Assembly (NCBI RefSeq): GCF_026571515.1
Contig: NW_026851624.1
Span: forward strand, 186,001-250,000
Origin: Ruditapes philippinarum
Lineage: Eukaryota
Direction: 5' to 3'
Length of the DNA: 64,000 nucleotides
In this document: piece after piece, positions 11,271 to 63,850 of the stretch
How the letters are laid out: the number at the start of each line of letters is the position of its first letter
Numbering within the stretch: the first letter of the stretch is position 1
Translations under genes and position numbers: made by a program
The notes under the pieces: generated by a model
What the model was told of the DNA's origin: nothing
The model's input: the letters and a program-made list of their open reading frames with translations, nothing else
Databases searched by the model: none

Positions 11271-14199
11271 CTAAAGCCATTGCACTTTGTCACGAACCAA
11301 GAATATTTTAAGGGCATGCGCATGTCTGTGAGTTCATTAAAAAATGAAAATGTGTACGAAATTATATAATCAGAATAGAGAAAAGCTACGTCTTGTCTTA
11401 AACGAAATGGTCTTCATAAAGAACAAAAAGTATAACAAGGGTTCGAGAAACTTAGTCTGAGTAAGTGCCTTCATTGCCTTTAACCTGATCAACCTCATTG
11501 ATTACTATTAACTTGCGCAATTACATTTTGTAATACATAATGCACTTCGCACGAAAATTTTGTATTTTGAGCTTGTCCTTTCTGGAAATCTTGTTTCACG
11601 CAAAGTTTCGTTGAGTACCCTTTAGCAAATTCACCGTCCTCTCAATATCACTTGACGAATTATTTCCAATATTTGTCTTGAATAATAATCAGACAATTAT
11701 CTGAACTATGATCATCTGTAAGTATTCTGAGACCTTGAAGTCTGAATATTTATTTTACTTGAAAAAAATACCCAATTGAATTGGTAAAGCAGTATAACCC
11801 TACATAATTGAAAAGTAATATATATGGCAGACTAGATATGCAAGATTTAGTATGTTTTCCGTGAAAAGAGATCATTTTTTCTTCTTCGTTTCTAAATATT
11901 CTCTCTAGTGCATTGCACGATACAGAAATTACACGGATTTCATTTGATTCATTTTAATAATTGGAATCTTATATTCACAACAGTGTCGGTAATGTGGTGT
12001 AAAGACATGCTTTAAAAGAACGGTCTTTATTTTACTGTTCTAAATTTGTTGTTATGTTTTTAGACATGCAATAATTTTCAAATTAACAAATAGAAAACTA
12101 CCGACGATATATCTGTAATATACTGAATGACTTTCCTTTCAACAAGAAGATAAATACTAAATATCAACATAGATGCATTAATTTTATTTTGATTTTATTC
12201 CAACTTAATACTTTGTTTTAAATTAAGCATGGTTATCATAACATATTTAAAAAAGTTAGTTCTGAATACCATGAAACTTAATTATATGATTACGAGATTT
12301 TGGATTTTGCACGTACTCTTTTGGACTCTGCTCGTACTCAAAACAATTTTCCTAAAGCATTAAAACAATTACTATATGTTCATTTACCGTTGTACCTATA
12401 AACAAATATTTTTTGACGTTTTTCATAACTTTAATTAGTTTTACCTGACTACAGGTATTCATTACTTCAATGGCGGTTTTCTTAAGTCTTAATTCAGAAT
12501 AACTTAATGTTCATTTTACCGATATAACTATAAACTAATAGCTTGTATCTTGTTTTTTGTAGATTTATTTTTTTTCTAGTATGAAGGTATTTGTTACTTG
12601 AATGGCGGTTTTGAAAGAACTGCTATTGTCGCTATAAATGACGCTTTCAAAAGAATGCAAAACAACAAAACCAATAATGGTGGCCTATATCAAATACAGT
12701 ATAATCTTTTACCTTGCAAATTGTTAATGTGTTTTGATGGATAGTGCTATATGGATAAACAATGTATGTTTTCTATATCTAATTAATGAATTTGTATGAC
12801 TAATAATGTGTGAACTTTTAACTCTTTCTAACGCTGAACATGATATCTTTTCGATAAAAGCATTTTTCTTATGATCTTATGAACCTTTACTTTTTCTCTG
12901 TTTCCATTTTTCAAGAAGTCATCGTCTTAAATAGCGCAATTAGCCAATTAGTCTGATCGTAGTAAAAGGCAAAACTATTCAAGAAATTCAATATTTCAGA
13001 ATGATTTTTAACCAACATTATAAACGGCTATTGCTTAAGGTTTGTTAAAAAAAAACTTCACATTAACATACATTTCCCCGAGGTAATTTTTTTTAATTTT
13101 CTTTTCTATTTTGCATTTTGCTAATGAATCTGTGAAAGGTTGTCTTTAACCATATACACGCAGGTGTATTAGTTTTTAAGATCCTCGCCGTAAATGGCGA
13201 CTTAATGGGTTTTCTGGAGTTTAAACATATCTTAGCTTCAGCTGTTGAGGTGATTTTGATCCCTGGTGTTGCTGTAGGGCTTTAACACCAAGGCTGGCCA
13301 GAATCATCACAAACAAACAAACCAACAAACAAAAAACCTTTGCCACTAGTAAAGAACAAGGCCAGCCTGCACAACCACGAGTCTTAACTATATGTATACA
13401 TTTTGCTGTTCAATGTTTGTAATTTGTTTTTATTACAGTCCGTTTCATATTAAATTGATTGTTCTAAATTAAAAGCAGGTCACTTTAATGACAATAATTT
13501 CAGCAGATAATAAGTGTTAATAAGGTATGATTACATGCGGTGAGAGATTAAGAGTATGCGTGCTCTTTTTGTTATTTACTATTTTACTTATTCATTGAAT
13601 TGGGTAATTTCTTATCAGGTTTTACAAAGTTTTTTTTTTGGCTTATTTTGTTCTACTCGAATTTGGAACGCGAAAACGGATATGCGAATGATTCAAATAA
13701 AACTATTGGGTAACTGTAGATAGTTTTTCTTTCATCTCAACATTAAAGTAATAGCGACACGAAACTGGATCATTAAATATAGTTTAACAAATTATCTGTA
13801 ATGTATATTCGGAAGAGGCGGTACTTTAATTTCAATTTCTTTCATCATTTGTATGTCATGAGTTTTTTTTTCTTGTTTGTATCCAGAATCAAATATATAT
13901 GACGTCATTCCAAGTATAGAACATAGATAACCGTAATAATTAGACTATTAGGGTAACTGTATCGGAATAAACACAACGCACTCCTCCTCCAGGGAATACA
14001 GAAAATATACGATGTAACTCTACATTGTGTAAATATTTACTTTATTATAACTTCTTATCTTCTTCAATATGCGAATTTATAGAATAATTAAGCATGCTCT
14101 CTTATAAATTGGATATAGATTTGACTTCCAGATAAAGTTTGTTTTATTATTGTTTTTAAAAGTAAGTAGCACATAAATGTGTTGAATTACGTAACTACT

Positions 14200-14473
14200 A
14201 CATTGCTTAGTACTGATTGGTTCCAGGTACGGATCCGAGAGGGTATCAATAAGCGTATAGCTTCCAACACGATCGAACTAAAATAAATTAGTATAAACGA
14301 ACTGCATTTGTCTCCGAATAGTTACAATCCCCTGTAACGGACGGACAAGCCGCTGTGTTATTGAGCAGGACATTTTACGCTCATTGCTCAGCAATGGTTG
14401 GTTCAAAGACCGGATTCGAGAGTTTGTCTATAAGCTTATAGCTTTCTACACAATCAAATTGAAATAAATTCTG
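14200..14473 (+). mobile_element. Two adjacent 5'-truncated copies of the same SINE
   Basis: CATTGCTTAGTACTGATTGGTTCCAGG...CGAACTAAAATAAATT (14201-14297) and CATTGCTCAG...GGATTCG...TATAAGCTTATAGCTT (~14320-14473) match the 56.2-kb element. Confidence 0.85.
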
Positions 14474-16094
14474 AATATATTGAACAGTAAAATCCATTCA
14501 AACGAATACTTAATTCAATAATTATGACAAGTATGTTCGTCTCCTTTGCTTGTGTATAACAGAGAGTGTTTTTTCCATCAAACATTAGCTTTACTTTTAA
14601 AAACTATCAGTACCGGTAAAAAAGTACTGCTTTAATGTTAATCATTCGATTTAAAGAACATTACTTTTTTTATTCTTGGACATGTAAATATAAAAAAATG
14701 AATATCAGAACTTATTAATTAAAACAGGGATTTAAGGAGCATGTTTTTGACATTGATTATTGATAATGGCAAATTCTACAATTATATTTCTTTGAAACCC
14801 AAGTGCAGCAATGTTTTGTAAATGTTTTATAAGACATTTTTCAACATTAATATTTCAATTCATGTTATCTTAAATTCTGTTGAATTCTTGCAGAACGGTT
14901 ACTTTTCTAGAAAAGTTGTTGCATGGTTTTTATCACAATTCAGTTCTGTTTTAGATCGACAGGAATACACATACATACGTCTTAGATTTTAAGTGGTTTT
15001 GTGTGTTCTAAAATGAAATAGAATGAATCAATGAACCAGTTCACTAGGGAATGTTTTACTCTGACAGTTATGTCCCGTATGATTGCTAAAGAGAATATCA
15101 ATGTCAAATTGTTCGACAGGCAATCAGATCATCCAACAAAACATTCACATACTCATATCTCTGGAAAATATACCGTTGAAGGCGTTTACGAGAATGCATT
15201 GAGTACTATAAGAAATCGTTATTAAACTAAACAGTGACAGCATGTAACTTTATCATCTAGGATATGAATATTGTACATGTTCTGTCAGTTGCATTTCAAG
15301 CAAAATGATGCTTCCCACATGCTTGTATGGCTATTTCTAAATAGTCATAATCATATTTATAAACGGAAAAAATATGTGACGTCACATCGTCTTTAAGACC
15401 CCTAAATTTTGTAGGAAAAGAAATCCATGCCAATTACAAGAATAATAAAAAGCTGTTTTATTGAAAGCAAAATGGTAAAACTTCTACATTTTGCAATATG
15501 TGAGTTTAGTGAAACGTGATTTATCACTTTATGTTGTAAATGGCATTTTGTTGATAAATATGGTATGGTTATAAGGAATAGCAAGCATTTATGCTTGATT
15601 TACCGACTTCATTATCCGTCACATAGCCTCAACTAATGTCAAATATGTTTTGAAATCTATTGACCTTTTGGTACCAAAAGCTGTAAATAGCCTCTTTGGT
15701 GTTATAATATGACAGGGACAAATCGGCTTAGAGAAGGAAATTGAATGCTTTTGTTCGCGACAAAACTGTCTGAAAGCTTCCTTCATTTGAATGTTACAGC
15801 GGATAATTTCATTCGACAGACAATCATTTGTGTTTAGCCAAGATAGACTCAAAGTGACTTAACGTTATGAAATTATCCTATGGGAGGTAAAATCCATTAT
15901 GTCCCATCACCCTCGTTGATTCTATTTGCAGCGATAAGCTAATAACCGTTTCTGAGTTTATTATGGAACATAAGAATATTTTGTAAGGACCATTTTCTGG
16001 AAAGTATAAAATAGTATCCTTGAAATGTCGTTGAATTTTGACAAATAATTATGGACGATATTGTAAGATAGAACGTGTATGCATTTAAAAACAT

Positions 16095-16230
16095 TTTTTT
16101 TCCTCCATCGCTTTTTACGAAACAATTGCAAATACTGAAATATTAGTTTTCTTTTAACCCTTTTTTTTCCTCCATCGCTTTTTACGAAACAATTGCAAAT
16201 ACTGAAATAATAGTTTTTTAACCCCTTTTT
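16095..16230 (+). repeat. Local ~68-bp tandem duplication
   Basis: TTTTCCTCCATCGCTTTTTACGAAACAATTGCAAATACTGAAAT occurs twice; once in the paralogue at ~26282. Confidence 0.9.
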
Positions 16231-17644
16231 AACACTTTGAGTATCATCTTTATGAGCACGTTAAACATACTTCCATACGTATTTATATTCGTTACAGTCT
16301 TCTTTTGCAGCTACACGTATCCAGTAAATGTTGAGTAAAATCTCTTTAAATGGTATAAAGCAATATCTTATGTCATATTTTCATAACTTTATCAACAATA
16401 AGATTATATTGGTTCAATTATCTTAAGGTTCTTGCTGTAAAGTATTGTAACATAGAATTCCTCTTGACGTGTTTAACACACATGTATATTGTACGTTCAC
16501 ATAATAAAATGTTTCGGAACCAAATATTATTCAAGTAGGGTTTTATTCGCCGTGCATGACAGCTATTCGCTTTTTATGCAAAGGCAATTTACTACCAGTT
16601 TTATTTTATAGACAAACATTTGGGAAGCATTCTTTTATTTCAAAATAAGCAATACTTTATGCAGCGGATATAATGCGTTATATACTTTTATGCATATGTT
16701 CATACTGTTATGTAAATTTTAAACGTGAATTTAGAGACTCATGAACAAAATATATTGTAAATATTTATAATTTCTACTTTAATGTTTGTACTCTTACATT
16801 TTGATAACTCATGTGTTCATCAAATTTTCAAAGTAGTTTTTTCAATAGCAAACTAAAAACCGAACACAAATATTTTAAGGCTACTCATGATAGTTATACG
16901 AGTAAAATTGACTTCAACTAATATACTAGCATACCTTATCAATATCATATATAATTTAATCTTAACTCTAGAATATTTTCATTTGCAACCACTACATTTA
17001 TCTACGTTAAAATTAATGAAATAAATATAACCAAAACGTACTTTCCCTAAGCAACCGTCAAAGTACTTTAACAAAATGTCAAGTATGGCACAGAAACCTT
17101 GAGAAACTTGTTAAAACCTTAATTGCTTCGAAAGTGCCCAATGGCTAAATTCATAAAATGAGAACTTCTCGATCAACACACGGTTGCCGGTGATCTGTTA
17201 ATGACTAAAGATATAATGTAAGGTAGAATTCAATTGCAACAGAAGCGTTCCTGGCCCTATTTTTTGTAATTGGAATAGTGTATGGGAGCATTCTCCAAAT
17301 TTTATTTTATTCTGTCTCGCACGACAGTCGTCAGTGATTTTTTTGTTCATATTTTCTTACGGCATTATTTTCAGTTTTTTGTTCGTTTGTTTTTCTTGAA
17401 GTTAAATTAACTTTATTGTCAGTGCTTGTAAGATGTTTTGTTTACTATTTTCTTAATTCAACTATTCTTCTTTATCTATTGATCCAAGTCTGATCATTGT
17501 TGTTGAAAGGATTAGAACATTATACTTGTGCAAGTAAAGTAAAACAGGCCATATTGTTCACAAATTTGATAGCAAGCGTACTGTTAATTACAATATGATT
17601 GCTATCGATTGCTGAAGTTTATCTCTGTACATAATACTGTTGTA

Positions 17645-17930
17645 CTCGTTGTTTTGTTTTTTCTTTGTTTTTGTTTTTGTTGTTGTTGTTGTTGTTGCAC
17701 CAACATAGTAGAAGTGAAGTGATATGGTGATCTTCAAGTTTTTTTTTGCGGGGGAGACATCATAATCCTTTACGTGCATTGTTTCAAGCAAGAACGAGCA
17801 CTTGAGTAGAAACAGCTTGAGAGCTACCTCATGCGAAGGAATCTTAAGTCCCAGGCGGCATATGAACCCACGGCGGTAAGGGACACGTTTGTCTGAAGTC
17901 AACGACCATAACTACTCGGTCACGGGCGCC
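17645..17930 (-). mobile_element. Degenerate tRNA-derived Meta-type SINE with (CAA)n-like tail
   Basis: Head GGCGCCCGTGACCGAGTAGTT...GGGTTCA; body CATGAGGTAGCT...TTCTACTCAAGTGCTCGTTCTTGCTTGAAACAATGCACG. Family assignment is from memory of bivalve Meta-SINEs. Confidence 0.75.
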
Positions 17931-18064
17931 TTATCTAACAATTATAGCTTTGCATTTACATTTTCATAATAGTAATAATCACTATATGATATTTTAGCAA
18001 CAAATAATGTGTGTAATGCAAATACATGTAGCATAAATTTACACATATTCTCTTTATTTTTCAG

Positions 18065-18102
18065 ATGACTAGTTTGGATTAATGGTTACGATCTCAACAG
18101 CT
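18065..18102 (+). other. Candidate 38-nt micro-exon containing ATG (18082), encoding MVTISTA, phase-0 donor
   Basis: Long polypyrimidine tract plus CAG acceptor and GTAAGT donor. Both sites and the 38-nt length are kept in the paralogue at 28072. Confidence 0.6.
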
Positions 18103-18831
18103 GTAAGTTTATTATTGTATTAGGTGTCTGTTGTTTTTTTTGTGTTGACTTTTTTGTGGATTTTTAAATTATAATAATTTCGCATTTTTCACTGACAGCA
18201 GTTTTTATTAACTTTAAGGCTTGTATTTCAAGGTTTGAATATACGAAGACAAAGCGTAAAAGCACCAAAATATGTACTTAACTGGTACACGTTAATGTGT
18301 TTTTAAATTATTGTTTAAAAAACCGCAAACGTTGACTTATGAATTCAGACCAAAGTCAATGGTGAAAATTGGTAAAATATTCTACTGGTTAAGGTTTGTT
18401 ATTCAGTTTCAGCTCAACAGTACCGATACAAAATAAAACACTGCTTTATCTTTAACGAAAACGTTTCATACACATTCATTCCGGCAGAAAACAAGAGACA
18501 TTTTTACATCAAAATAGCAGGAATTTAGGTAAATACGAAAAAAGTATTTTCTGTTATTTGTCAAAATCATTCATTATACTTGTAATGGTAAACATAGCAA
18601 AGAACTTTGATAACGTTACCTTGACAAAATATTCTGTATACCATCATAATCGCATTTTATCCTACACAGCCTATCGGGTTATTTGTTTGACACAACCAAT
18701 GGCTTCTTTATGATAATAGTTTTCTATGCTTATTTACACAAACATAACACAATAGTTCAAAACAGATATGACACTTTACTGAAATTATAGAAATCTTCTA
18801 TATGAAAGTGTTTGCTGTTAAGATAGAATGA

Positions 18832-19180
18832 AATATCACATTGTATTATTATCAAAAAGATAGTTACAGTTTATGGCCTGAACTATCACCTTGTATTATT
18901 ACGAAACACATAGTTACAGATTATGGCCTAAAATGTCACCTTGTATTATTACGAAAAACAAAGTTGCAGTTTATGGCCTAAAATATCACCTTGTATTATT
19001 ACGAAAAACATAGTTATCGTTTATGGCCTAAAATATTACCTTTTGTTATTACAAAACATACTTAGTTACAATTTATGGCCTAAAATAACCCCTTGTATTA
19101 TTACGAAAAACATAGTTACAGTTTATGGCCTGAAATATCACCTTGTAATATTACGAAAAACATAGTTACACATTATGGCC
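18832..19180 (+). repeat. 49-bp minisatellite, ~7 copies
   Basis: Unit AAATATCACCTTGTATTATTACGAAAAACATAGTTACAGTTTATGGCCT. Confidence 0.95.
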
Positions 19181-19586
19181 ATATAAAACGTTCGTTTACG
19201 CGTGCATTGAAAGCAACACAATCCCAGGCGTTTTGGCAGGTAATGTCCATACAATGTGGTGGTTAATGTTCTCAATCAGTTTTTGAGAATAATAGATAGG
19301 GTTAAATTAGAGTAAAATTCTCATCAAAAGATATAGTTTTATGCGTTACAAGTTCACATATCAAGCTTATACATGTATGTCTATAATACATTTGTCATAC
19401 GATAATTGTTTTCTGAAAGTTTTGTTAAAAAAACAATACGGAATCGCAAATGCGCTTTTGTGTGCTTTATATTGATGACGATTAATTGTTCATTTTGATT
19501 TGCTCGCAAGTTAAAACTAAATGTTCACTTTGAAACAACAAATTTAAATGCTCTTGAATAGAAATGTTTTTTTTTTCCTTTTTCAG

Positions 19587-19658
19587 AATATCGTCTTTCC
19601 ACCCACTCCTTTTAGTATAAATGCAACACCTGAATGGTTTTTGTATTTTGTGTTTTAA
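19587..19658 (+). CDS. Candidate second exon of a micropeptide (NIVFPPTPFSINATPEWFLYFVF*)
   Basis: Very strong polypyrimidine/CAG acceptor, in frame with the phase-0 micro-exon. The paralogue keeps frame and stop. Confidence 0.3.
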   Translation, partial: NIVFPPTPFSINATPEWFLYFVF

Positions 19659-21664
19659 TGTGTGGCGTAGTTATTTGCATAAAATTCTGTAAAAGAACTC
19701 GCCTTTCTAATTGACTTTGAATTAAAGCCATTGCACTTTGTCACGAACCAAGAATATTTTAAGGGCATGCGCATGTCTGTGAGTTCATTAAAAAATGAAA
19801 ATGTGTACGAAATTATATAATCAGAATAGAGAAAAGCTACGTCTTGTCTTAAACGAAATGGTCTTCATAAAGAACAAAAAGTATAACAAGGGTTCGAGAA
19901 ACTTAGTCTGAGTAAGTGCCTTCATTGCCTTTAACCTGATCAACCACTTGATTACTATTAACTTGCGCAATATTACATTTTGTAATACATAATGCACTTC
20001 GCACGAAAAATTTGTATTTTAGCTTGTCCTTTCTGGAAATCTTGTTTCACGCAAAGTTTCTTTGAGTACCCTTCAGCAAATTCACCGTCCTCTCAATATC
20101 ACTTGACGAATTATTTCCAATATTTGTCTTGAATAATAATCAGACAATTATCTGAACTATGTTCATCTGTAAGTATTCTGAGACCTTGAAGTCTGAATAT
20201 TTCTCTTACTTGAAAAAAAAATACCCAATTGAATTTGTAAAGCAGTATAACCCTACATAATTGAAAAATAATATAGATGGCAGACAAGATATGCAAGAAA
20301 TAGTATGTTTTCCGTGAAAAGAGATCTTGTTTTTCTTCTTTTCTAAATATTCTCTCTAGTGCATTGCACGATACAGAAATTACACGGATTTCATTTGATT
20401 CATTTTAATAATTGGAATCTTATATTCGCAGCAGTGTCGGTAATGTGGTGTAAACATATGGTTTATAAGAACGGTCTTGATTTTATTGGTCTAAGTGTGT
20501 TTTTGTTTTATTTTTAGACATGCAATAATATCCAAATGAAGAAATTGAAAACTGCCGACGATATTATTTTTTGTAATTTATATGACTGCCTTTTCAACGG
20601 AAAAGCAAATACAAAATATCATCACACAAACATTTATTTTGATTTTATTTCAACTTCATACTCCCACATTTTGTATGTTTTAATTTCCCAAAAATATTAT
20701 ACTTATCATAGTTAAGGTTTGTTCTAAAAACCGCGAGACTTTAATATCTGATTACTTGCTTTTCGATTATGCACATACTCAAAATATTTTTTCTTAAGCA
20801 TTAAAATAGAAATTACTAAATGTTCGATTGCCGACACATTTGTTTGTTGTTTTTAATATCTTTAATTAGTTTTCATCACTTAAATGGCGATTTCTTCAAG
20901 CCATGATTAAAAATTACTAATTGTTCATTTTCCGATGCAACTATAACAAATATTTTGTGTCTCTTTTTTACAGGACTATTTTTTTCTGTATAAAGGTATT
21001 CGTTACTTGAATGATGGTTTCGAAAATACCTCTTTTGTCGCTATAACTGACGCTTTCAAGTTTATATAAAACAACCACATAAATAACTGAATTGTTCATT
21101 AAAATAAAAATAATAAATTATTTAAACTTGACTTTCCTACTCAATGGATTCGTGTTTTCACATTTACCCTGGATGTAAATGTGTATGTTTATCTTTTTCT
21201 ATGATATGATTTGCAACTGTCTTTCATGAAATGTCTTTATATGAAGCAGGCGTTTTAACGCATCAAGCCTACAATATATGTTTTTAAATAAGACTCATAA
21301 TAATGAAATTCAAACTAATTAGGAAACATTTCATATTGAGCAAACAAGTTCTCATAATAATATGTCATATATCAACATATTAGACTATATATCCGTACAA
21401 TTGTTAACTGAGTAGTACATCCTAGACGTTTATCCAACAGTTTGTTTTCTATTAGTCTCCCCTGACCTCATCATAGGATTATTCTACATACCTAAAATGT
21501 GAAACAAACTGGAGATATTCCATTGATAAGCTCGACGTTTTGTCTAGCTTGACAGAAACATTTAAGCTCATTGGCAGATTACCTGTTATATGAGGAAATC
21601 GAGAACCGGGCAGACAAATTTAACATCAGTGATACAATTTAGTTCATTAACAGTAAGTTCTGAC

Positions 21665-21709
21665 GTACGCGTATCAGGAACCTCAGGTACGCGTATCAGG
21701 AACCTCAGA
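21665..21709 (+). repeat. 22-bp perfect tandem duplication
   Basis: GTACGCGTATCAGGAACCTCAG x2. Confidence 0.9.
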
Positions 21710-22984
21710 GTAACATATTTATGTTCAATATAATTATACACATGTCTTGTTGAATAAATGCACCAATTAATAAACTATTACTAAAAGTAACGATAAATAA
21801 AACCAGACATAGTTAGATCTGCTTTTTGATACATTTCAGTAGAAAATGTTGGTACTTTTGTTAAATAAAACTACTCAACGACAAATTATTTCTTTATACA
21901 AATCTGGAAAATAAAATTCATTGGTTCTGACATTTTTTTTAAACAAAAGCAATATTTATGGAAAAAAATAAAAATGATTATACATATCATTGAATGTAAT
22001 TATTTGTTGCGTTAAATTTGTGCATTTATCGTCAATTTTAAATCAATGATTTTCTGAAATATAACCTCTAATTAGGCTTTATTAATTCAACAATTAACAT
22101 TATGTGTCTTGTTATAACAAATGAGCGAGTAAGTTAATATGAGAATAATCTCCTAAATGCTGCAACTTTGGCTTATCCTATCATTGAGGCATAAAACAAT
22201 CGAATTCTTTCGAGTTTTAAAAACATTCTATTATAGATTAAATCATATTTACACATTTTCATCATCCCACCAATAAACCAATATCTCATGAGATTCGTCT
22301 TAATCAGCTCGCTATGTCTTTGTATAGGTCATGAACACTTATGTAATATACATATATAAATTGTTAACATCCTGAAATACCGGAAAAATATTGATTATAA
22401 TTAACAAGGCGTTATATATATATAATTTTCATTTTATCAGTCATTACATCGAATACGCCCCCACCTCACGAATATTGTTTGCTACTGTTTCAAACAAGTG
22501 ATGGCCTAATATATCAAACACAGTATAATCTTTTACCTTTCCAATTGTTTATGTGTTTTGATGGATAGTACAATATGGATAAACAATGTATGTTTTTCTA
22601 TATCTAATTAATGAAAGTGTATGTCTGCTTATGTGTGAACTTTTAACTCTTTCTAACGCTGAACATGATATTGTTTTCGATAAAATCATTTTTCTTATGA
22701 TTTTATGAACCTTTACTTTTTCTCTGTTTCCATTGTTCAAGAAGTCATCGTCTTAATTAGCTAATTAGTCTGATCGTAGTAAAAGGCAAAACCATTCAAG
22801 AAATATAATATTTTAGAATGATTTTACAATCAACTTTATAAACGGATATTGCTTAAGGTAAGATATGAAAACTTTACATTAACATACATTATCCAGTCTT
22901 TTTTTAATTTTCTTTTTCATTTTGCATTTTGCTAATTATGCTGTGATAAGCAATGAAATGTTGTCTTAAACCATACACACGCAG

Positions 22985-23003
22985 GTGTGTGTGTGTGTGT
23001 GTG
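22985..23003 (+). repeat. (GT)n microsatellite
   Basis: About 9 GT units. The paralogue at 13164 has only GTGT. Confidence 0.9.
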
Positions 23004-23059
23004 ATCTTGCGAAGGTTAACTTATACCTGTTTACCTTGACCCTCAACCTATTGAACTTA

Positions 23060-23328
23060 AAAAGTTCACCTTGTGGTTGAGGGGTTGTCTCTAAAGGTTG
23101 AGGCATCAGAATTGCAGCCACCGTTTATCCCTGCGTGACCGTAAATGGCGACTAAATGGGTTTTACCCGAGTGTCTTCAGCCGGTGAGTTGGTTTTACCC
23201 CTGGTGTTGCTGTAAGTTTTTAACATCCGCGGCTAGCCAAAATCATCATTCCTGATTTGGTGCCAATCGACCTTAATTTTTTTCATACGCCGGAAAACAT
23301 TATAAACAAACAAAAACACAAACAAACA
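23060..23328 (+). mobile_element. Degenerate SINE (CCCTGCGTGACCGTAAATGGCGACTAAATGGG body, (AAAC)n tail); shorter paralogue at ~13180-13336
   Basis: GC-richer insert. The 3' part CCAAAATCATC.TT.CTG.TT.GG.GCCA matches fragments at 37133-37205 and 46100-46197. Confidence 0.65.
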
Positions 23329-24191: not shown

Positions 24192-24465
24192 CATTGCTTA
24201 GTACTGATTGGTTCCAGGTACGGATCCGAGAGTGTATCAATAAGCGTATAGCTTCCAACACGACCGAAACTAAAATAAATTAGTATACATGAACTGCATT
24301 TGTCTCCGAATAGTTACAATCCCCTGTTACGGACGGACAAGCCGCTGTGTTACTGAGCAGGACATTTTACGCTCATTGCTCAGCAATTGTCGGTTCAAAG
24401 ACCGGATTCGGGAGTTTGTCTATAAGCTTATAGCTTTCTACACAATCAAACTGAAATAAATTCTG
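24192..24465 (+). mobile_element. Paralogous pair of truncated SINE copies in unit 1b
   Basis: Duplicate of 14200-14473. Confidence 0.85.
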
Positions 24466-50467: not shown

Positions 50468-53149
50468 GCTGTTTCTATATATTAATAACACGACATTACA
50501 AAACACACTTAATGTTAGTATTGAATGACAGTAGACATGAAATATACGTTACAGCTAATAGAACCGACATTGGTCTTTGAGCTAAGATATTTTCAAAATA
50601 AGGTCAATCTAATAAACAACCATCAAACCTATAGTTTTTGTTTGCATTGTTAAGCAAAGCTTACTAAACGTAGGAATATGGTTAAAGAACTTTTCATAAA
50701 CAACATAGACATAATGCTTTAGACTGTTTTCGTCAACTTGTCCCTTTCCAAGACCATTTATGTCAATCTTCACTTCAAATGACCATTATTTGTCAATGTT
50801 ATCCAAGTAATATTATTCATTTACAACTCATTATAAAAGCTATCACAGTTTTAGAATAGTACATTTTGTGCCAGTCTTAATCGATATCAATCAAGCCAAC
50901 GATCCAAAATATTGCCATTATCACGCTTGTTTAATCATACTTGTGCGCTCATTAGGAAACTTTACAAAGTAGTCAAGAAAAATGTACTTTAAGGAACCAT
51001 GCGAAGAGAAATATTTTCCACCCAAACAGTTTATTCCTCTTTCTATATAAGGTAAGAGTGTTCAACGTAATATTCGCTGCACAGCTGAGCCAAACACCCA
51101 TGCATGTGTTTTATTCTTGGAATTCAAAGGAGCTTGTTCAATATTATACTCAATCTATCAAGCTTAAACAGAAGACTTACCACATAATCTGTCTTCATCA
51201 TATGTAGATCGCTGTCCATCAACCTCACTAGTGTCATGAAGCGGAATACTGCGGTTACAGTATGTGTTAACAAAACCTAATTGGGTGCAAACTTGAATCT
51301 TATGAAAAAGAGATAAGGCTGTCTCCGAATTTGGCAACAGGACACAAGTAAATTCAGTTTAATAAAGAAGAATGATTTTCGTCCTCAGAAAATTGTCTGC
51401 AATAATAATAGCTGATAAACCCTAAAAGGTTCGGTATTGCACAACAAGGCGTATGTAACGCGCATATGTGCCATGTTTGAAGAGATATGTATGTTGTTTG
51501 CCAAATAAAATTACAAATGCAATATCATGTTTCCATGCAACCACACACATTTAATAGACAGATTGCCTTATATGTTGTGCTTCCGCATGTTAGTTGTTCC
51601 TTGAACAGGACATTGCATGTTTTTATTCTCAACCAACATAACCATTTTAAATGAATTTTAAGACCAAATGCATGTACTGCTTAATATAAGAAAACTCTTC
51701 TTTATACTTAAGAAGGCATGTACATAGGACTATATGAAATACAAACAATGATATGGAAGATACAAAACATAGAAAGCGGTGTTGAAACTTAAAATAATAT
51801 AGATATGTTAAAATATTGAAAATGTTATTTTAGATGAGTTCTTTAAAGTTGTAAAGCTATAGATGGTTATATTACTTCAAATATTACAAAATTTATGAAA
51901 CAAGGTTGCTAAAAATTTCCAATGTCATTTATATGGCGCAACAATTCAATATAACATAAAGGATCTGAATTTTAAAGCCCGTCTAAAAATATTCTACTGC
52001 TATTTTCGGACAGTGTTATAGTGTGTCCGTCTATTTGCTACGAATCTTACAAACTTGTTTTCAGTATAGGTACTGTAATGTGATTTCAATCAAGTAACAA
52101 TCACAAATAGCGTTTATACTATATTTAACATTTTTAAATAAAAAATATTAGGATTATCAGAATAACTTTTACGCTGAAGAGCGTCTGGTTCAAACAGAGT
52201 TCTTTGAATTATACATTTGAGGCATACATGACGTATGCGAAAGAAAAGATCGTTGCTGCTGATATGTGAACTAGCCTTTTGTCACTAATGACAATATCGT
52301 GACCAAACTATTGCTAACGATGATCCGATAATGACAAAGGCGTAAAATCAAATGAACATAATTGTCCCGCACATCCTCTTCAATTGAACTTAATTCCGAT
52401 GGGAAAAATGTTATCGAACTTTATAAAAATGATAATATGCCGATATATCTTATTTGAGAGGTTTCTGTCTTCAAAGAATACAATGGAAATATAAAACAAA
52501 GATATGTTTATGCCGCATTGTTAAGGTATAAAAATTTGTTGATTCATAGTTTACTAAGGAAGTATGGAGTCGGAGGATGGAGGATAACATCTTAAGATGT
52601 ACATTCAATGATGCGCTCCAATGATTGATTGTAACAGCTGTGACAGTACTTTCTTTTAGATGATCGAACTATTCCGAAAGAGTATCGGATTTTTGGCAAA
52701 ATCACAATAACATCGCCCTTTCTAACTTACAACACTTTCCAGTATACTAAAATGAGTTACAACTATTTATACTCACTAGGTTATCTTGAAGATGTCGTCA
52801 GAAATATGACGAAGTAATAAGTATTGAAGATATTACTTTGCTTGTCAACATTATCAAACCATTTTTCATCGGGTTAATTGTCTTTTCTTAAATTTACTTC
52901 AAGCATTTTTTTCAGAATTTACTTTTCTGTTCACTTTCCTTATGCAAACTATGGAGGACATAGCCAATCACTCCAATTCAAGTTGTACACTAAATATAGA
53001 TTGAAATTCATTTTTGTCTTCAAATTGTCTTGTAAGGTACTCAATATGTTTCATTTTCTTTGCTCTAATGCTACACAATTAAGAAATAAGCATAACATAA
53101 ATTTATCGTCTCTCCATAAATTGAGAGACAATGTTTTTAAGGAGGTTAT

Positions 53150-53460
53150 TACAATGTACTTTGGAAATTAAGTTATCTCAAATGATACTGCTATTGTCCT
53201 TATTAAGATATTGATTTCATGTAATAACGTAATGTTCTAATTCATTCTACAATAACAAGATAATGAGAGCTTTGAAGGAAAAGTCTGAATTTTGTAGGCG
53301 TGCTTGATATTTAGATTTTGAAATTCTTTTTGGTCTTACCAATATTTTACTTGATTGGCACACACATTCTTTTGCATCTAAAAGGTTCCAATTTCACCAA
53401 GGATTCAAACTTTCTCTATCACCGGTTTATAAATGAAGAGGAAAAACCACTAAGACTGCT
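53150..53460 (-). mobile_element. Decayed Penelope-like GIY-YIG endonuclease relic
   Basis: Minus strand 53346-53296 reads NIGKTKKNFKI*IS, resembling YIGxTxRxLxxRxxEH. A 1-nt frameshift would restore EH. Stops and frameshifts are present. Confidence 0.4.
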
Positions 53461-54138
53461 GGTCTTTTTTAATCAGGCTTATGTGTCTCAATTTGTTTAT
53501 TATAAGGTTAACACTTGAACTTATATTCACTTTCTTTATTTTCTTAAGTTCTACCGCTTGAAGTATTTCCTTATGGAACAATATTTTTAAGTGGTTAAAC
53601 ATGATAATAAACCATGCATCAGCATTTCAATATTTGAATAAGAAAGGAACACCATGCATTGCATAACATACTTCCTGATCTATGTCAAGCGTTTCTCTAT
53701 GTTACATTTCCTTCTTGCTTTATACAAACAAGTTACAACGCATATAATTAGTTCAACGGCTACCATTTAGTCTAAGAATAATCTAGTGGGTAGATATACA
53801 TGATTAAACATAGTTAACAAGGAGTACATGTAAATGTGTATATAAATTTTATTATTATCAGAATAAAAAACAATGATAAACAAGAAAGGACAACATCAAT
53901 GCACACAGCCCAAAATCGAATAAAAGTCTGCTAAGAAAATATAAATGTCATCATTGACATCTTTAAATTTAGACAATAACATTATTCAAAGTACTAGTTA
54001 AAGGGAGACACATGCAAAATTTTCATTTCTTCGTTTTGAATTTTTCATTCATTTATCTGTAAATGTTCTCAAAATGAATACACTAGGCAGTCACAGGAAC
54101 AAAACTTTACTCCTTATAAATAAAAAAAGGGTGGTTTC

Positions 54139-54190
54139 CTAACCTGACCCACGCGGGTCAGGTTAGAGCGATAAGATTTCACAAGTCTAG
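54139..54190 (+). other. Perfect 12-bp GC-rich hairpin followed by CTAG|T; possible Helitron 3' end
   Basis: CTAACCTGACCC-ACGC-GGGTCAGGTTAG at 54139-54166; CTAG at 54187-54190. Confidence 0.4.
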
Positions 54191-55211
54191 TCACAGTGAA
54201 CTCTGGAAACTATTAAGAACCGTCAAATGAATGATTTATGTTTGTTTCAATCATACTATAGCCACAATATCTGTAATTGTAACTTCCATGGTTTGTTCAA
54301 GTCGCATGACTTGTTTTAAAACTACTCAGTGATTCTGCCGGCGTCTAAATTTCGTTAAACATATATAGGTATATTTAAACTTCAAACCCAAAATATATAG
54401 AATATTTACAGAAATCCATGCTGGAACTTTTACAAATGTCATATCAGCGTGATTCGAGTACAAAAGATAGTTTTGATATTTTTGTCATTAATTTGCCTGA
54501 GGTAACAAATATAGCTATAATTCGTTAAATGTGAAAGTCCTGAGACGAACTCTCGTTTACAAACATTTAAAGAGTTTCTGATTTTAGTTACAAACAGATT
54601 AGTGAAGCAATTATGAAATTTTGTTAACTACCTAAACATGCTTTAATTTAATGCTTTTCTTTATTAAAATCATTGGAGAAATTGAATATTAAAACAAGAT
54701 GTTATTGTGTTTTCATATCACATCCTTCAAAATTTATTTGTAATGTTTCAATAGCCTGAACTTATGTGCGTGTCGAATAATTTAATGATATTTTTTTATC
54801 ATTGAAAGGTAGTATTTGTGATACTTTTAGACTTTACTCATTGTTTGCTCCACTCTTGTTTTATCTATTTAACTTTTTAATATGCATCGGAAATAATTGT
54901 ATAGATATGTAATTATTCTTTGTGAATTTTTGGCGATGTCTCACGTCTTGTCTGATAATATACTGCCGATCAATAATGGAACTTTAGCTCGCATAATTGG
55001 AAAGAATGAATTTTATATAGTCAGCACTAGAGTTTATATATACACGTATTAGAGCAATAAAGCTGTACTTTATGATTTACAGGATAAATATATTATTGCA
55101 CACTCCTTCCTTATCTTTATAAATAGAATATAACCTTCATTTGTATACAATTTACAATACGATAATTGTCGTTTTTCAAGTGTTATTTTTATATTCCTTT
55201 TCTCTTTTCAG

Positions 55212-55249
55212 ATGAAATTGCGGGATTAAACACAAGAATGAAAACACAT
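55212..55249 (+). other. Candidate 38-nt micro-exon (diverged paralogue), ends MKTH, phase-0 donor
   Basis: TTCCTTTCTCTTTTCAG acceptor and GTAAGT donor. Same length, same ATGA start and GGATTAA at the same offset as the other two. Confidence 0.55.
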
Positions 55250-56076
55250 GTAAGTAATGAAAGTTATACCATTCATGGTTATTGTTTCAGTAATACTGTT
55301 ATAACATATTTTAAATATATTGCTGTTCTCGCTACACACTTTAAAATTACTAATTTACCCATATAAACACGGACATTAAAGTACATTGATATTAATCATT
55401 CATAGTAAGAAATCAATGTTTAATATATCTTAATTATTGGTGCTTATGCCTTAAAGCAAACAACTTATAATAATTTACAATCTTAAACTATAATAATGCA
55501 TGCACTTAAAAGAAGCATTGATTGTAATACGTAATTTTTTGCTAACAAAAATGCAGTTTAAATTATTTCCTATTCAAACAGTTAAAAAAACTTATCAGCC
55601 TTGATATTCATATATGTGTGTACTTCTTAAACATTAAGTCAAACTCCCCATATGCAAATGGAGAATAAAATTGTTAATTGTATCATAAAACGACAAACTG
55701 CATATTTGTTGGACAAATTTATATATCTTTCGTGATCGACTAGCTTATTTGCTTTCTGAAACTGCAATTACATGTTGGCATCTGACTCGAGATGACTGAC
55801 ATACCGAATACTTTCTTTGTCTTGTAATCGATAATTTGATATTGTAAATGAGCGTTTGCAGAATATCCTGTGGTCATTTCCTATTTACTTTAGCCATGAT
55901 ATTAAACAACATACGACACATCAACTCATCGATTAGGAAGGAATTTCTTAAGATTTAGTGTTCGTCACATTATAGTGGTTTTTAAAATTCACAAAAAATA
56001 TTTTAAATTGGCAAATCAAACTTGTGTCTTATTATAGATTACATATATTTTTTTGCTTTTGTATATCGAGGAATTG

Positions 56077-56303
56077 GTTTTAAATTATACAGAATTTATT
56101 TTAGTTCGATTGTGTAGGAAGCTATAAGCTTATAGACACACTTACGAATCCGTTCCTGGAACCAACCAGTACTGAGCAATGATTGTAAAGGTTCTTGTTT
56201 CTCCACGAAACAACGACTTGCCCCTGACGGGGTTTGAACCCATGCGGCTAGCGATCATGAGATTACTAGTCCGACGCGTTAACCACTCGGCCATGCCGCC
56301 ACT
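56077..56303 (-). mobile_element. Full-length tRNA-derived SINE (CORE-like bivalve family) with 15-bp TSD
   Basis: Minus-strand head GGCGGCATGGCCGAGTGG (A box)...GGTTCAAACCCC (B box); body CATTGCTCAGTACTGGTTGGTTCCAGGAACGGATTCG. TATATCGAGGAATTG is duplicated at 56062-56076 and 56304-56318. Confidence 0.93.
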
Positions 56304-57458
56304 TATATCGAGGAATTGACTTCCTTTATTAATGATATTGAACATGTTTTGTCTTTACTGTAAATATATGAACGTGTTAGTCATATTATATGTTATTTAA
56401 ACAATAAATAAGGAGGAGGTTGATTTCAACAAAATAAAGAAAAGGAAGCAAGATAAGATACAAACTTTAAAGTAATATTGTGGTAGTTCTTGCATATTTA
56501 TAATGTTCTTTGTATGTAAACGTCCGGCAGGAGAATCATAAAAGTTAACTTATTACACAGCATGCCACTCTTTGGGTTCGAAGAAATGTTGTCCTTAATA
56601 AATGTCAAACTTATAGAAAGTATATCGTATTTGTTTCAGTGTTTTTTAAACATTTTATAAGTTGGATTTAGTTTGAGAAGCAAAAATGAAAGGAAACTAC
56701 CATATACAAAATATCCAATTCTTACTTTGCTACATTTAATATTTTCCGCGTACATTTCCATCTCAGGATCAAACGAAAATATACTATAGGAATTCTTTTC
56801 GTTGAACAAATATATGTTTTTCAGGATATCTGCTGTAATAGAAAATTTATGAGATGAAAGATTTTTTTCCTTTCAACGGCTATGGTGATGATTTTTATGC
56901 GTATTTATACACACGTTTATTATTTTGTGTAGTTAATAGATATAAACGCATTTATGTATAATTAATAAATATGCATTGTAATGTTCATTTAGAGAGAACC
57001 CCTTTGAATAAGATACTACATATTATTGAATATCACGTTGCCAACATGAAAATAAATACTTCTTTAAAAACTATGTATGAAGGAAGTCAAGACAGATTGC
57101 ATTAACAGCTGGGTCATAAAACCAGCCCCTTTTCTCTCTGTAAAAACAAAGTCCGGATGTTTTGCACAAATGCTGACTACTTAATTGATCCATTACAATT
57201 TAATTAGCTCCTTTATTTATAGGCTTTGTTTACATATCTTTTGCCATAGGAAATCAGTTTCAGCAGCAATTTCCACCATTACTTATTTCTTAATTGCTGC
57301 TTTCGTCAAGCATTCAAAGTTGCATTGAATTTATCACAAATGCATTCTCATGACGTAATTTAAAAGAATTCCATGAAAAATTTCTAAACAAGATATTTTA
57401 AATTGACTCATTCAGTGAAATGCAAGATAATTAAAAGATAAAAGCCTAAGGGTATTTA

Positions 57459-57779
57459 GGCCATTGTTTTCTCGTTTAAGGCACACGCTTTTTATTACTA
57501 GGGGACCATACGCCGCTTTTCATGGAATGGCACGGAAGTGTCACATTGAAGGTTCCATGATAACCGCCGTATGAACACATCTGCGGATGTTTCTAAATTC
57601 AAAATTTTACTATTTCACGTTTAAATGTTGAATTCTGCTTAAGCCGGTGCTAGGGGGCGTGGACGGTAACTTGCACTTTCCAGTACCGTCCATGAACAGG
57701 CTCAATCAAACCGAGCCTGCAACATTTTCAATTTTGCCGTGTTGGGCTTTCTTTAGGGATTCTGTATTTATCTATTTTA
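57459..57779 (-). mobile_element. Hairpin-rich non-autonomous repeat of unknown class
   Basis: Absent from the paralogous site at ~63380. Its end is the reverse complement of 24521-24600 and 48858-48930. Three internal inverted repeats. Confidence 0.8.
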
Positions 57780-58639
57780 ATAAATAACAAAACATTTCAC
57801 GTTTCGATTGGTTTCTGTGGAGTATGGCATGATTTGTTTATTTCCTCTTTAGATAACAGATAAAACGATTTCCTGTATGTGTTCTTGATGTTTGTTTTGA
57901 TAGTGTTTGAATAGGTTTCGTTCACACTGTTTAAATGGGTATCGTTAACAATATTATTAATTTAAAATAACAATTTGTTTTTTTTTCTAGGATATCACCC
58001 CTTAACAACATATACTTGGAATCACATATTTTCTTACTTTATCGCTTCATCGTTCATAGCCATTGGTATCTGAACATATTGGTACTGATACCTTCCTAAA
58101 ATACATGTCTCTTGCACTAACCTTTGTATGTGACAGGTACATATTGATTTGATTTAATGTTTACCGCCTATTTGTCATGAAGAGGCATGGGTTGATTTTT
58201 TTTTTCATCCAGTTCTTTCAATTTTCAATGAGTGAAGAAGGTGCGATTGCAAGATATGAGAAACAATTTAAATTATCTTTAACCACAATACCATGAAAAT
58301 ATTTATTATCTGAATCGGATGAAACCCCTTGAAATGCCATCCAAAATTATCATGCGAAACTACTTCAAATTATCTGCTCAATCCTCTTGATTTATAGCTT
58401 TTTTTGTGTATAACACTGTTCGTGTAACCATGTAGCAAATCTGATCTATAAACTGAAGAAAGTCTTTACTTTCCAATAGAACTTTGAGTTGATAAGGTTT
58501 CTTAAGTTTTCAAGTGCGCTTTTAAATTGTAGAAGGTGCATGTTGTTTTATTGACAGTGATATGTCTTCCTTAGTTTATTTTATCAGATTGGTTTGGTGG
58601 ACAACACATTCTGAGGCAACGAAACAAAAACTCTTTAAA

Positions 58640-59130
58640 TGTCTTTACTTTACAGTGCTTTTGTTTGAGTCCTCAGCAGTACTAATGCTGCTGACCGTTT
58701 TAAGGCGGCGCCCTCTGTGTTCCTCAGATGTATGTCTTTGTTGTTTCATACCGTTTTGATGACACTTTTGTTTGTGTCCCTTGTTGTTTACATCTTCGAT
58801 AATATTTTCCCTTTTGCCACTTGATTTCTTTCTCATTTTGACCCTCTTTTCCCCTAATCACGTATCACCTTCCCTGTGCCCCTTTACTTTGTGGGTTAAT
58901 AAATCAATCGGTTATTTGTTTTCATTAATTTTCTTGTCGGTTATTATTTAATCTTTTTAAGTATCATTTAAATGATTAGCCTGTCCGTGCTCTGCCGTGC
59001 GCCCTGTCCTGTTTTTGTTTGGGGTCCTCCTCGGCTCCTTGCCACTTGTTCTTGTTACTGGGTCGAGTGGGTGATGCGTTCATTAAACGCCGCCTTTCCT
59101 TGTTGATCTTGTTTACCATATTGTTCTAAT
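58640..59130. mobile_element. GC-richer interspersed-repeat relic
   Basis: CTGACCGTTTTAAGGCGG resembles a CTGACCGTTCCAAGGCGG repeat I recall as abundant in bivalve genomes. Strong strand skew and no sustained ORF. Confidence 0.45.
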
Positions 59131-62049
59131 TACTGGTGTCCATTCATCTAAATATTGTCATACTGCATATGTAAATATATCCGTAGTTTTGATTTATTAT
59201 TACTTTATTCCTGGTTCTTCCTGTTCTATAACATTGTGTTTGCTGGATTAAATTTTATAAAACATAATAATAACTGAATAAATATGTACAATAAACAAAT
59301 AATAAACAAATACATAAATAAACAATTTGTTATCACATTTCTGCTGACTAGCACACTTTATCTGACTATTAAAGACATTTTCTCAGGGGGGATATAATAC
59401 TTATTACGTGATCATTTGACATGTGCAGTCGGCACACTCGTTCTCAATAAAGCGTTGGTAACGTAATACTTTAGGTTATGGTTCCTAAAACTTAATTAAT
59501 CCGACATAAAAGTGTCTCAGCTAACACATTTTAATTACAATGTCATCCGACGTCTTTATTTGTCGAGGATATTTCCTGTTACAATGTTTTTGATATTAAT
59601 AGAAATTAATTGGCATTGTGTCTGAAAGATGATAGGGATATAATAAGGGTGTTCTTCACTATTTTTGTGTTCCTTCAAAGTTAATATAGAAACTGTTGTC
59701 CATTGGGTGTTTATAAGTACAAAAACGCAAAAGTGATTTCCTACATACTGTCCTTTCTACTATATTATATGGCTTTCTACATGTTTGGCTAAGCATCAAT
59801 TGAAAAGTTAGAAAGATGATGAAGACAAAGAAAGAGATATAATAACAGGCAAAATGAACAAAGAGTCAACAATGATAAGGATTGTTGCAATTGCAATAAA
59901 TAGATACTTTGTACTTACATAAGAAAATGGTCATTATTCTATCACAAAAGGAATTACAGGACTTGTTGTCTAGCATTCCTAGTTTATGCGTTGTTAAAAT
60001 TAATAACAAAAGTAACACGCAGCCCGACAACATCCAGCCTCATTGAATTATCAGGAATTAAGCCAGTGGTGCACCAAACAGAGACAATGCAAAAATGGGG
60101 TAGGAAAAAAAAGGACGGACAGGTGGCGAGTTAATTAATTACATAAAAATGCCATATAAAAAACAAAGATCTAAATCTGGAGCTTTTTGGTGATATAGTT
60201 TAATTTGGTATAACAACACTGAGAATGGACTGGAGCAAAGCGTTTAAGGCAACAGTACAGTCCTTCTTTATCTTCCATTCTTACAGGAATAAGCTCCGGA
60301 AATACCAGTAAACTGAATATGTATAATGATTGTTAGTTTCTTTGGCGCACGATCATTCGTAATGCAGATTAATTTATATGCTCAATGACCGAATATTATG
60401 AAATTTCCCGATGGGAGAGAAAATCCGTTTAATCCAATCATCTCACTTGATTGTATTTGCAGCAATAAACCGATTACTGACATTTATATTATTAACTTAC
60501 AGAATACGATTAATTTAAGTACATTTTCTTGTAAGCGATTATCTTATTAGTATTGTCGCTGTTAGTACTGTTGACATTACTATAATAAAGCTAAGTTGTA
60601 TCATTTTTATTGCACTAGTTGTTGAAGAAATAAAATTTAAAAAAAAATGATAGAGAAATGGCAACAATTATTTCCTTTGAAGGAACAAATAGAAAACTTC
60701 TTTTATAACTTATGAGTATAACAAAGAACGTCTAAACATAATCTGTCAAACTACGAACATAAAAGATCTTTACACAATAAACGATCTCAATCAATTTGAA
60801 GTGCCGTCTGTCAAGATTTACATATGCCTTCTTTTCAAAATCTGCAAGTGAAAAGCTGACGGAACATAATACGTTTAGTTCGTAATTGGATGCACGGCGA
60901 TGTAATAAGAAAAAAGGTTAAGATCGTCTCTGTGTGTGGTAATGGCAAATCAGGAAATATTTTTGAAAAGGAGAAAAATCGATTCCTAGAATATTGACTG
61001 CTTTAAATACAGAAACGAAAACAAAGAAAGCTTGTTAAAGAATACCCAGACAGTTGTAGTACTTATATGCATCGATATAATATTATAAGATGAAAAAGAC
61101 ATGGATATGTCATATCAAGTGCATATTTTGCAGACAATTACTTGATATATATAGAGTTATATGTTTGTTTGTTTGTTTATTAATTAATACCTATATTTGT
61201 ACCTTACTTTTAATGTTAACCACCCGCTGCAAGTAAAAACAAAATAGAACTTCTTGATATTAAGTGAAAACAAATAAGTAAACATATTATGAACATAATA
61301 TTCTGTAAATTATCAATAACATGAAATAAAAATCTAAAATGTTCAGGTTAACTTTATGATAGCAATCCAATGTACTTAAGAAGTCATGTTATCGAAATAA
61401 TTATAATTTAAATAAAGATCATATCATAATTATTTACCATATATTGTATGTTTTACATATTTTGATGACTTTTCTATTGATAAAAGCTACAACTTTTAAC
61501 ATTTCAAACGAATGAAAAAATGCTAAAAAATTGAACCTGCAGTAGCACATCATGTGTGTAAGAAATGTAATGCTAAAGTGACAGAATTTTACATTTTTAC
61601 CAATTTTTTAAAAAAAAAATAGTTAAAATAAAAACGTTTGTGACAATCACGTACGAAAGATTAACGTACGATCTAATAATTCTTCTTTCACTATCTCGTC
61701 CCGAAATTATTGTTGACATGAGCGCAACCAAGTTGTTTCCGTGACCCAATGTATCAGATACAGCTAACACTCTCAATAAAACGCTGAAAATATATTTGTA
61801 ACACTGAATATTTATACGCAATCAGTTAGAATTTTTAGTGTCTGCGTTTGTCATGTAATTTAAGTCCCTTGTCGAAACTGAATAATTTGCAATTCTGTAC
61901 CACTGTAAGAACTTTCACACAGTAACTGATTTTGACAAAGTTAGAGATTCAGGGGAATGAGTTCGATCTTGTACTTCAGGGAAGGTACTTGACCATTTAA
62001 TGTAGTTCAATGTGCTATGTTCCATTTTGGTTTATTTGTATAAATAAGT

Positions 62050-63850
62050 TTTGTTTTTTAAAAAGGCCTGAATCTTGTGAATTTTGGTTAAATGATAGAT
62101 TTCAAAATTGTCTACATTCAATTTGTTGTTTTTGTTAAACCCTTATCATTTACTCATTGTTCACTTGACTCTTGTGTACTTGTTTTATATTCAACGAAAG
62201 TTATTGTACAGTCTACAATTTTCATAGAAATGCAATTATTATTGGTGAATATTTGGCAATGTCTCACGGCTTTTCAGATAATATACTGTAGATCAATAAT
62301 GGAACTTAAGCTCGTATAATTGGAAAAAAATGAATTTTATATAGTCAGCACTGGAGCATAATAGAAAGTTAATAGATACAAGAGAAATAAGGCTGTACTG
62401 TATGATTAATTGCGTACATAAGACACCACACTTATAATACACTGTCCTTTCTAATCCTTAACAGCGTTTGTGTATATAGTTCGCTATATTATATTGCTTT
62501 TTAATTTATTCATACTCCCCTACACATTTCATTTAATTTGTTTCGACTTGACAAGCATCCATGAAATGAACAGTTAAATATTCGGATATTTTTTTATTCG
62601 ACATAAACATAAATTGGGTTCCTTTTCATTATTAGATCAAAACGAAACTATACATTATGATATTATTTAGTTGAACAAATAAAACCATTTCAGGATGAAA
62701 CATTTCATAACTGCTATAATAAAAAGTTCATCAGATGAAAGATTTGTTTCCCTTTCAAAGACTGAGGTAGTGTTTTTGCACTTAATTAGTATTTATACAA
62801 CAGTACTATTGCGTAGTCAATAAATATAAACGCATTAATATATTTATATAATTGGCATATTAATGTTCATTTACAGACAAATATCCTTTGAATTAGGTAC
62901 TTCTTATTATTGAAGGTTACAACAAACAAAACTTGTTGACAACATCAGAAGAACGCTTCTATGATAAACATGTAGCAAGGTTAAAACAAATTGCGTAAAC
63001 ATCTGAGCAATAAAACCAACCCCATTTCTCTTGGAAAATCTTAAAGCCGGATGTTTTGCACCAATGTTGACTATTTCAATGATTCATTACCGTTTAATAA
63101 GCTCCTATGTTTAAAGGCTTTGTTTACATATCTGTTGCAGTAGGAAATCAGTTGTTTCACCCTTACTTCTTTAGAAAGTGCTGCTTTCGTCAAGCATTCA
63201 AAATTGCATATTAAAATTAACACAGATACAGTTTCGTTATGTAATTTGAATGAACTTAATAACAAAATGTCTAAAATATGGAAAAAACGTCACAAGGACA
63301 GGCAGCGTTAAATGAACCATATAATTAAAAACTACTTCATTCAGTGAAATGCAAGATACAAGTTGAAAACCTTACGGTATTTAAAATAATGAAACATGTA
63401 AAATATCGATTGGTACCTATCAAGTATTACATGTCTTATAAGATTGTCATGATGTGTTCTTTTCGTAAGTTATGGTTTTTACTTGTATGTGTTTTTATTA
63501 ATTTATTGTTTTCTGACGTATATATTGAATTTATCTAATGTTTACAGTCCATTTCTGTAATGAGGCATTGATGAGATTTATAATTGTTTCTATCAATTCC
63601 TTCGTTAAGAAATCAATTCGAAGGAAACGGCGGTACGAGTAACAAAACAACTGAGATTTTTTTACCTACACATCCCTGAAACAATTTATAACCTGTACGG
63701 AAACCCTTAAAATACCATCAAAATAATTATGCAAAACTACTTTGAATACTCTTGATTTATAGAGTGCGTATATCATACTGTCCCTGTAACAATTCTGATA
63801 TAGCTGAATTATAAACGGAAGGGTTGATACTACTTTCCAATTTCCATAAA
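62050..63850 (+). repeat. Older segmental duplication, unit 3b (internally shorter copy of 3a)
   Basis: Same blocks as unit 3a. Lacks the equivalents of ~55200-56700 and 57459-57779. Confidence 0.88.

Follow-up and report, generated by a model that had tools for sequence, protein, structure and literature searches.

An old tandem array of non-coding modules with conserved, putatively cis-regulatory islands near a muscarinic-type receptor gene in the clam Ruditapes philippinarum

Related systems

Genomic regulatory blocks, in the available text of PMC5585340, are gene-poor, repeat-depleted and dense in conserved non-coding patches, with conservation being between species and a developmental regulator being the target. 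A stretch of 64,000 nucleotides from the clam Ruditapes philippinarum (contig NW_026851624.1, C111 below, positions 186001-250000; ‘the window’) resembles such blocks in that the region is gene-poor, transposon-depleted and rich in conserved non-coding patches, here termed islands. The differences are that conservation here links tandem paralogues of a single genome and that the nearest gene encodes a G protein-coupled receptor (GPCR). Since no developmental regulator was found, and conservation is known from one genome only, the locus is not filed as a genomic regulatory block. The reading put forward, with a probability of roughly 0.6, is that the stretch is an ancient series of about 13 tandem copies of a single non-coding module without genes. 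Selection most likely kept its islands as cis-regulatory elements, enhancer-like groups of binding sites for factors, which would probably act on a muscarinic-receptor gene.

In the amphioxus Irx-Sowah cluster, the subject of Maeso et al. 2012, tandem copies of a set of conserved non-coding elements (CNEs) were reportedly kept while the exons of a gene were lost. Each CNE copy there is said to accompany a retained Irx gene, whereas 13 units here are without a detectable gene. Numbered CNEs with a-d suffixes from that cluster appear in a table of PMC5010895, and the cluster is also mentioned in the accessible part of PMC3342872. The amphioxus Pax3/7 tandem pair has no recurring CNE, according to the available text of PMC6010424. 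Human segmental duplications yield families of regulatory elements, some acting outside the duplicated segment and some orphaned or masked (bioRxiv 10.64898/2025.12.03.692127, as far as its accessible text goes), and the clam islands are like these in being duplicated non-coding elements that form families. However, the human families described there are young, near-identical, mostly dispersed and supported by STARR-seq and CRISPRi, whereas the clam islands are old, head-to-tail and known from sequence alone. With respect to the receptor, the pertinent comparison is human CHRM5, which has one coding exon, the clam receptor exon likewise having a predicted acceptor just before its ATG; distant 5′ exons are known for CHRM5 but none has been located for the clam receptor, and the available text of PMC1978498 describes no duplicated upstream array for CHRM5. 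No gene-less tandem CNE array in a mollusc was found in the literature searched, most subscription papers and supplements lying outside the search, and a degenerate pattern for one of the islands (f) had no match in metagenome contigs.

The array and its islands

The sequence analysed was the entire 434-kb contig, and the assembly searched comprised 1.41 Gb. Coordinates are window positions, extended in both directions beyond the window ends; the window itself is 30% GC and contains no N. Profile searches of the contig yield 60 copies of seven island types (d 11, e0 8, e 8, j 7, f 10, h 9 and i 7), each of about 200-300 bp and all on the + strand, with E-values from 1e-24 to 1e-81 except for a single e copy at 1e-4. 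The copies span 15.7-108.9 kb (about 93 kb), with 28 of the 60 inside the window, and they form 13 units, each about 2-11 kb long with at least two islands, plus two single-island fragments. The consensus order d-e0-e-j-f-h-i holds in every unit, with individual islands missing here and there, though this fixed order is partly built in because unit boundaries were placed where the order resets. Inside islands, identity between deep copies is mostly 43-70%. Self-BLAST gives two young pairs, 1a/1b with long matches at 81-88% and 2a/2b at 73-84%, older matches being short.

Within the window the units, all +, are 1a (11272..19722, 8.5 kb; islands d and j), 1b (19723..30345, 10.6 kb; 87% identical to 1a, as a mosaic of 97-100% and 75-85% blocks), 2a (30346..39261) and 2b (39262..48200), each 8.9 kb with d, e0, e, f, h and i, U3 (approximately 50500..59850, ~9.5 kb; e0, e, j, h and i) and U4 (59850..64000, on to ~64700, ~4.8 kb; d, e0, e, f, h and i), beyond which the array extends to ~108900 with shorter units. 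A first-pass annotation, made from the letters of the window, had proposed six or more units of ~9 kb. Repeated units there are, but their length is not uniform (~4.8-10.6 kb in the window and less beyond), the island set is only partly shared, 1a/1b having just d and j in common with the rest, and the array goes past the window to +108.9 kb and includes two further islands, e0 and j.

Island d is at 15681..15971 (1a), 25849..26139 (1b), 32186..32446 (2a), 41379..41631 (2b) and 60219..60503 (U4), and the d motif of the first-pass annotation recurs at 15737, 25905, 32239 and, with a single mismatch to the pattern, 41429, its 3′ half being at 60421. The additional island e0 is at 32817..33039, 41990-42230, 51005-51241 and 60661-60833, and island e, with its motif at the positions expected (33391, 42558 and 61028), occupies 33237..33469, 42435-42637, 51274-51468 and 60875-61104. 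Island j, also additional, is at 17048..17321, 27149-27418 and 52183-52454, and island f at 34572..34800, 43136-43326 and 61774-61960, the f motif being found again at 34678, 43203 and 61847. Five copies of h and four of i had been proposed with no coordinates given; fitting islands, the probable counterparts (script labels g and h respectively), start at 36.6, 45.2, 48.2, 54.8 and 62.1 kb (36575..36875, 45151-45459, 48202-48530, 54798-55091 and 62118-62428) and at 37.2, 46.2, 57.1 and 63.0 kb (37216..37412, 46193-46397, 57080-57315 and 62980-63199). The proposed order d-e-f-h-i is borne out in 2a, 2b and 60-64 kb.

Some units have minisatellites of their own, at 18831-19180 (50 bp x 7) and 43547-43885 (31 bp x 11). 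In the 1a/1b pair, otherwise at 75-90%, blocks of 97-100% identity (11272-11970 versus 19723-20420, and 13670-15170) bear signs of recent conversion or exchange. A second contig, C5850, overlaps C111 end to end (C5850:1-23284 versus C111:1-31830) at ~85% mean identity, 72-98% by block, with one upstream duplication in common; it represents either a highly diverged second haplotype or one more tandem copy.

Constraint and duplication history

Between deep lineages only 1-7% of a unit can be aligned (26% in one close pair), and the alignable patches coincide from lineage to lineage. In the three focal units the overlap was 1330, 1123 and 1745 bp, against 170, 442 and 257 bp under random shifts (p<=0.0003 in each), the strongest result of the analysis. 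Islands have been retained independently in at least six deep lineages. In all six younger pairs island divergence is below that of the remaining unit sequence (ratios 0.44-0.88; combined p=0.0006), in five of the six indels are fewer in islands, and relative to local flanks islands are less diverged in 18 of 23 cases (p=0.005). Columns that are invariant in other lineages have fewer mismatches in the young pairs (126/1256, 10.0%, versus 302/2135, 14.1%; p=0.0005), and conserved columns are grouped in short blocks in six of the seven islands. By these comparisons long-term purifying selection on the islands is well supported. They qualify as paralogous CNEs in being non-coding, not transposon-derived and slower to diverge than their flanks at recurring positions, the contrast being weak against repeat remnants in 2a/2b. 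In practical terms, constrained non-coding DNA of a mollusc can be mapped by aligning a single genome to itself.

The history of the array is one of serial head-to-tail duplication, piecemeal deletion and island loss, and long-term retention of the same non-coding patches, with the young pairs being mosaics of blocks differing in age. Island distance matrices are positively correlated in all 15 comparisons, six of them at p<0.05 (d-f rho 0.87), and the main clades are common to the d and f trees; such agreement is expected of whole-unit duplication and not of island-wise conversion. Presumably the module was multiplied by repeated unequal crossing-over, individual copies were shortened by deletions and the binding-site clusters were retained by selection, factor binding then being the likely cause of constraint. 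Retained copies would add to, or diversify, enhancer input without raising gene dosage.

Genomic context and the receptor gene

Coding scans revealed no protein-coding gene from -186 to +150 kb, only transposon remnants, a desert of at least 330 kb. Shared repeats cover 2-6% of C111 windows versus 14-29% in seven of eight controls, and tandem collinear duplicates make up 26-50% of seven of eight C111 windows versus 0-16% in eight control windows, though the controls, large contigs found via a tubulin search, may for that reason lean gene-rich. The nearest gene (+152397 to +154532) encodes a single-exon GPCR of 711 amino acids, with muscarinic receptors as its best relatives of solved structure. 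The gene has a single copy (next match 35%), its coding exon is 43 kb past the last island, and it is this proximity that makes the receptor the probable target. No developmental regulator was found on C111, where only the muscarinic GPCR and an ApeC-domain gene are present, and none was evident among the long open reading frames (ORFs) of C5850, which were inspected without a Pfam scan.

The receptor exon is itself flanked on both sides by a sister array of about eight non-coding units (+141800 to +202300). A segment of 335 bp ending 7 bp before the predicted splice acceptor of the exon (152328-152329, 67 nt before the ATG) has three paralogues, at 183.7, 191.0 and 200.1 kb (E 3e-12 to 9e-4), with no exon after them and the acceptor AG absent. 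Elsewhere on the contig there are no receptor pseudo-exons, one tblastn match being at E=0.49. The simplest reading is that the sister-array units once held the receptor exon and then lost it; alternatively, the exon may have been inserted into one unit, or breakpoints may have fallen beside it. A bolder and quite tentative extension is that nearly all of a regulatory landscape exceeding 300 kb arose as multi-enhancer modules were duplicated in tandem, time after time, around one single-copy neurotransmitter-receptor gene, with exon copies deleted and enhancer copies kept or diversified, so that the module, not the gene, would be the repeating unit of an enhancer birth-and-death array. Should the islands prove to be enhancers, one genome would hold seven elements in 7-11 naturally diverged copies each, from which one could learn what bases an enhancer requires and how its copies are retained, lost or re-specialised without gene duplication.

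Weighing the explanations

That selection has long acted on non-coding DNA here, as the first-pass annotation proposed, stands; the cis-regulatory role it also proposed is argued from exclusion and context. Among 14 factor motifs, five are enriched at least 1.3-fold. Several considerations weigh against a regulatory function for the islands, or against present constraint on them, and the motif result is among these since no more than five of the 14 are enriched, those for Fox, Sox, GATA and Pbx-Hox are depleted, and the copies are not independent. Only two of the six younger pairs are significant individually, for several copies of f, d and e divergence is faster than in the flanks, and the effect at invariant columns is confined to A/T sites (8.1 versus 14.0%; G/C sites 15.1 versus 14.4%). 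Island GC is 33.6% versus 30.2% in flanks, and because of this slight enrichment slower mutation may contribute to island conservation. A near-neutral yardstick is provided in 2a/2b by two shared repeats, a high-copy dispersed one that is not an island (33041..33185, between e0 and e) and a repeat remnant (31524..31848, with an inverted copy at 28888-29200). Island cores in this pair have 40/659 mismatches (6.1%) and the two remnants 40/459 (8.7%), p=0.10. Present-day constraint in the youngest pairs is modest, and in 2a/2b it is not significant relative to these transposable element (TE) remnants. The contrast claimed at first pass for 2a/2b, of near-identical islands in clearly diverged flanks, is present (7-15% versus 12-22% in local flanks) but weaker than described, because the TE remnants of the same pair differ by only 8-9%. 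As to context, one control window matches C111 in its paucity of repeats, the scans of the desert may have missed short exons of another gene, and a muscarinic receptor is an atypical target for a desert of conserved elements.

The alternative that survives best, though it is unlikely, is that the units are, or once were, transcribed without coding for protein, each as a long non-coding RNA gene or as an alternative promoter whose 5′ untranslated exon is spliced to that of the receptor, the islands being promoter and exon signals. All islands share one orientation, on the same strand as the receptor, and the predicted acceptor before the receptor ATG leads to the expectation of upstream 5′ exons; in human CHRM5, alternative 5′ exons lie at distances of tens of kb (PMC1978498, in its available text). 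Island e has an AG after a short pyrimidine run in all seven aligned copies. Yet no splice donor or acceptor in the seven islands passed a conservation-plus-score filter, and TATA and poly(A) words are depleted. Four RNA runs, considered over 29.5-49.4 kb (units 2a/2b), gave mostly partial, repeat-derived reads, with no unit-gene intron among the 15 splice joints listed (101 more were unlisted). Cover in run X8, which is unstranded, is thin (mean ~1.3x in 19 of 30 bins chosen as repeat-free) and may derive from genomic DNA or from nascent RNA. Outside repeats, cover falls to zero or close to it in the PolyA and oligo-dT runs X14 and X23. A dispersed repeat at 48850-49300 draws thousands of partial reads in all four runs. 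A tandem cluster of microRNAs or snoRNAs was also considered and finds no support, with no conserved hairpin or Rfam match in the units (no match at E<=1; best mean folding z -1.1 and consensus energy near 0 over 104 windows).

Less probable is that the islands were once functional but that most copies are now dead or redundant, the recent duplications having arisen neutrally because the region is prone to unequal crossing-over. The weak contrast with repeat remnants in 2a/2b, the frequent loss of islands and the faster-than-flank divergence of some f, d and e copies are what this would lead one to expect; so is the duplication in blocks of the entire contig, where divergence is as high in the C111/C5850 overlap (~15%) as in the young pairs. 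The independent retention across deep lineages, and the lower divergence and fewer indels of islands in six and five of the six younger pairs, argue for the retention of function instead.

There is very little probability left for the islands being degenerate coding exons left by an extinct gene family, or for each unit hiding a short hypervariable peptide gene, despite their exon-like size, fixed order, single strand and slightly higher GC. Self tblastx matches have no third-position bias, all frames of all island majority sequences contain stops (longest open run p>=0.10), indels in multiples of three are not in excess at 14-34%, and none of 36 island frames reaches the Pfam cut-off. Power at period 3 stands out in one of the seven islands, e0, whose frame is broken between copies. 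Codon-usage and tblastx scans of the contig for hidden exons gave only the receptor, a LINE, the ApeC gene and repeats. The conserved-protein version is largely refuted, and the initial observation that no coding sequence is recognisable is upheld, the coding, splice, RNA-structure and Rfam tests all being without signal.

Finally, transposon fragments, gene-conversion tracts or an assembly artefact have a next to negligible chance of accounting for the islands and units, given locus-specific islands, 43-70% deep identity, congruent island histories, nested duplication ages and the same upstream duplication on C5850, even though conversion or recent exchange does affect 1a/1b, as its 97-100% blocks include a repeat remnant. 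Islands d, f and i, the three of seven searched against their own genome (with a tool that skips very common words), match only C111; a 6-kb query from 2a found other contigs solely through the 145-bp repeat between e0 and e, and none of the 60 island copies overlaps repeats common to the eight control contigs. A high-copy TE origin, named at first pass as a possible refutation, is rejected on these grounds. The other possibility raised there, conversion tracts, is likewise set aside together with TE fragments, because the patches persist independently in deep lineages and the island trees agree; conserved patches recur at the same positions in independent lineages and pairs.

Other features of the locus

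Exons of the ApeC-domain gene are at +226575 to +236090 (Pfam PF16977, E 4e-9), and a segment of discoidin-like appearance there is without a Pfam match. Remnants of LINE-like reverse transcriptase, and broken ORFs that may resemble a Polinton-type element, are at -62616 to -60466 on C111 and at C5850:106400-111500 and 132300-136300. Upstream on C111 there are unrelated tandem arrays, comprising a pair at -175/-157 kb, a triple at -119 to -95 kb, four copies at -89 to -55 kb, and others at -54 to -41 kb and -16 to +2 kb. Within the window, a four- to five-copy patch recurs near 1.0, 8.8, 9.7 and 11.1 kb.

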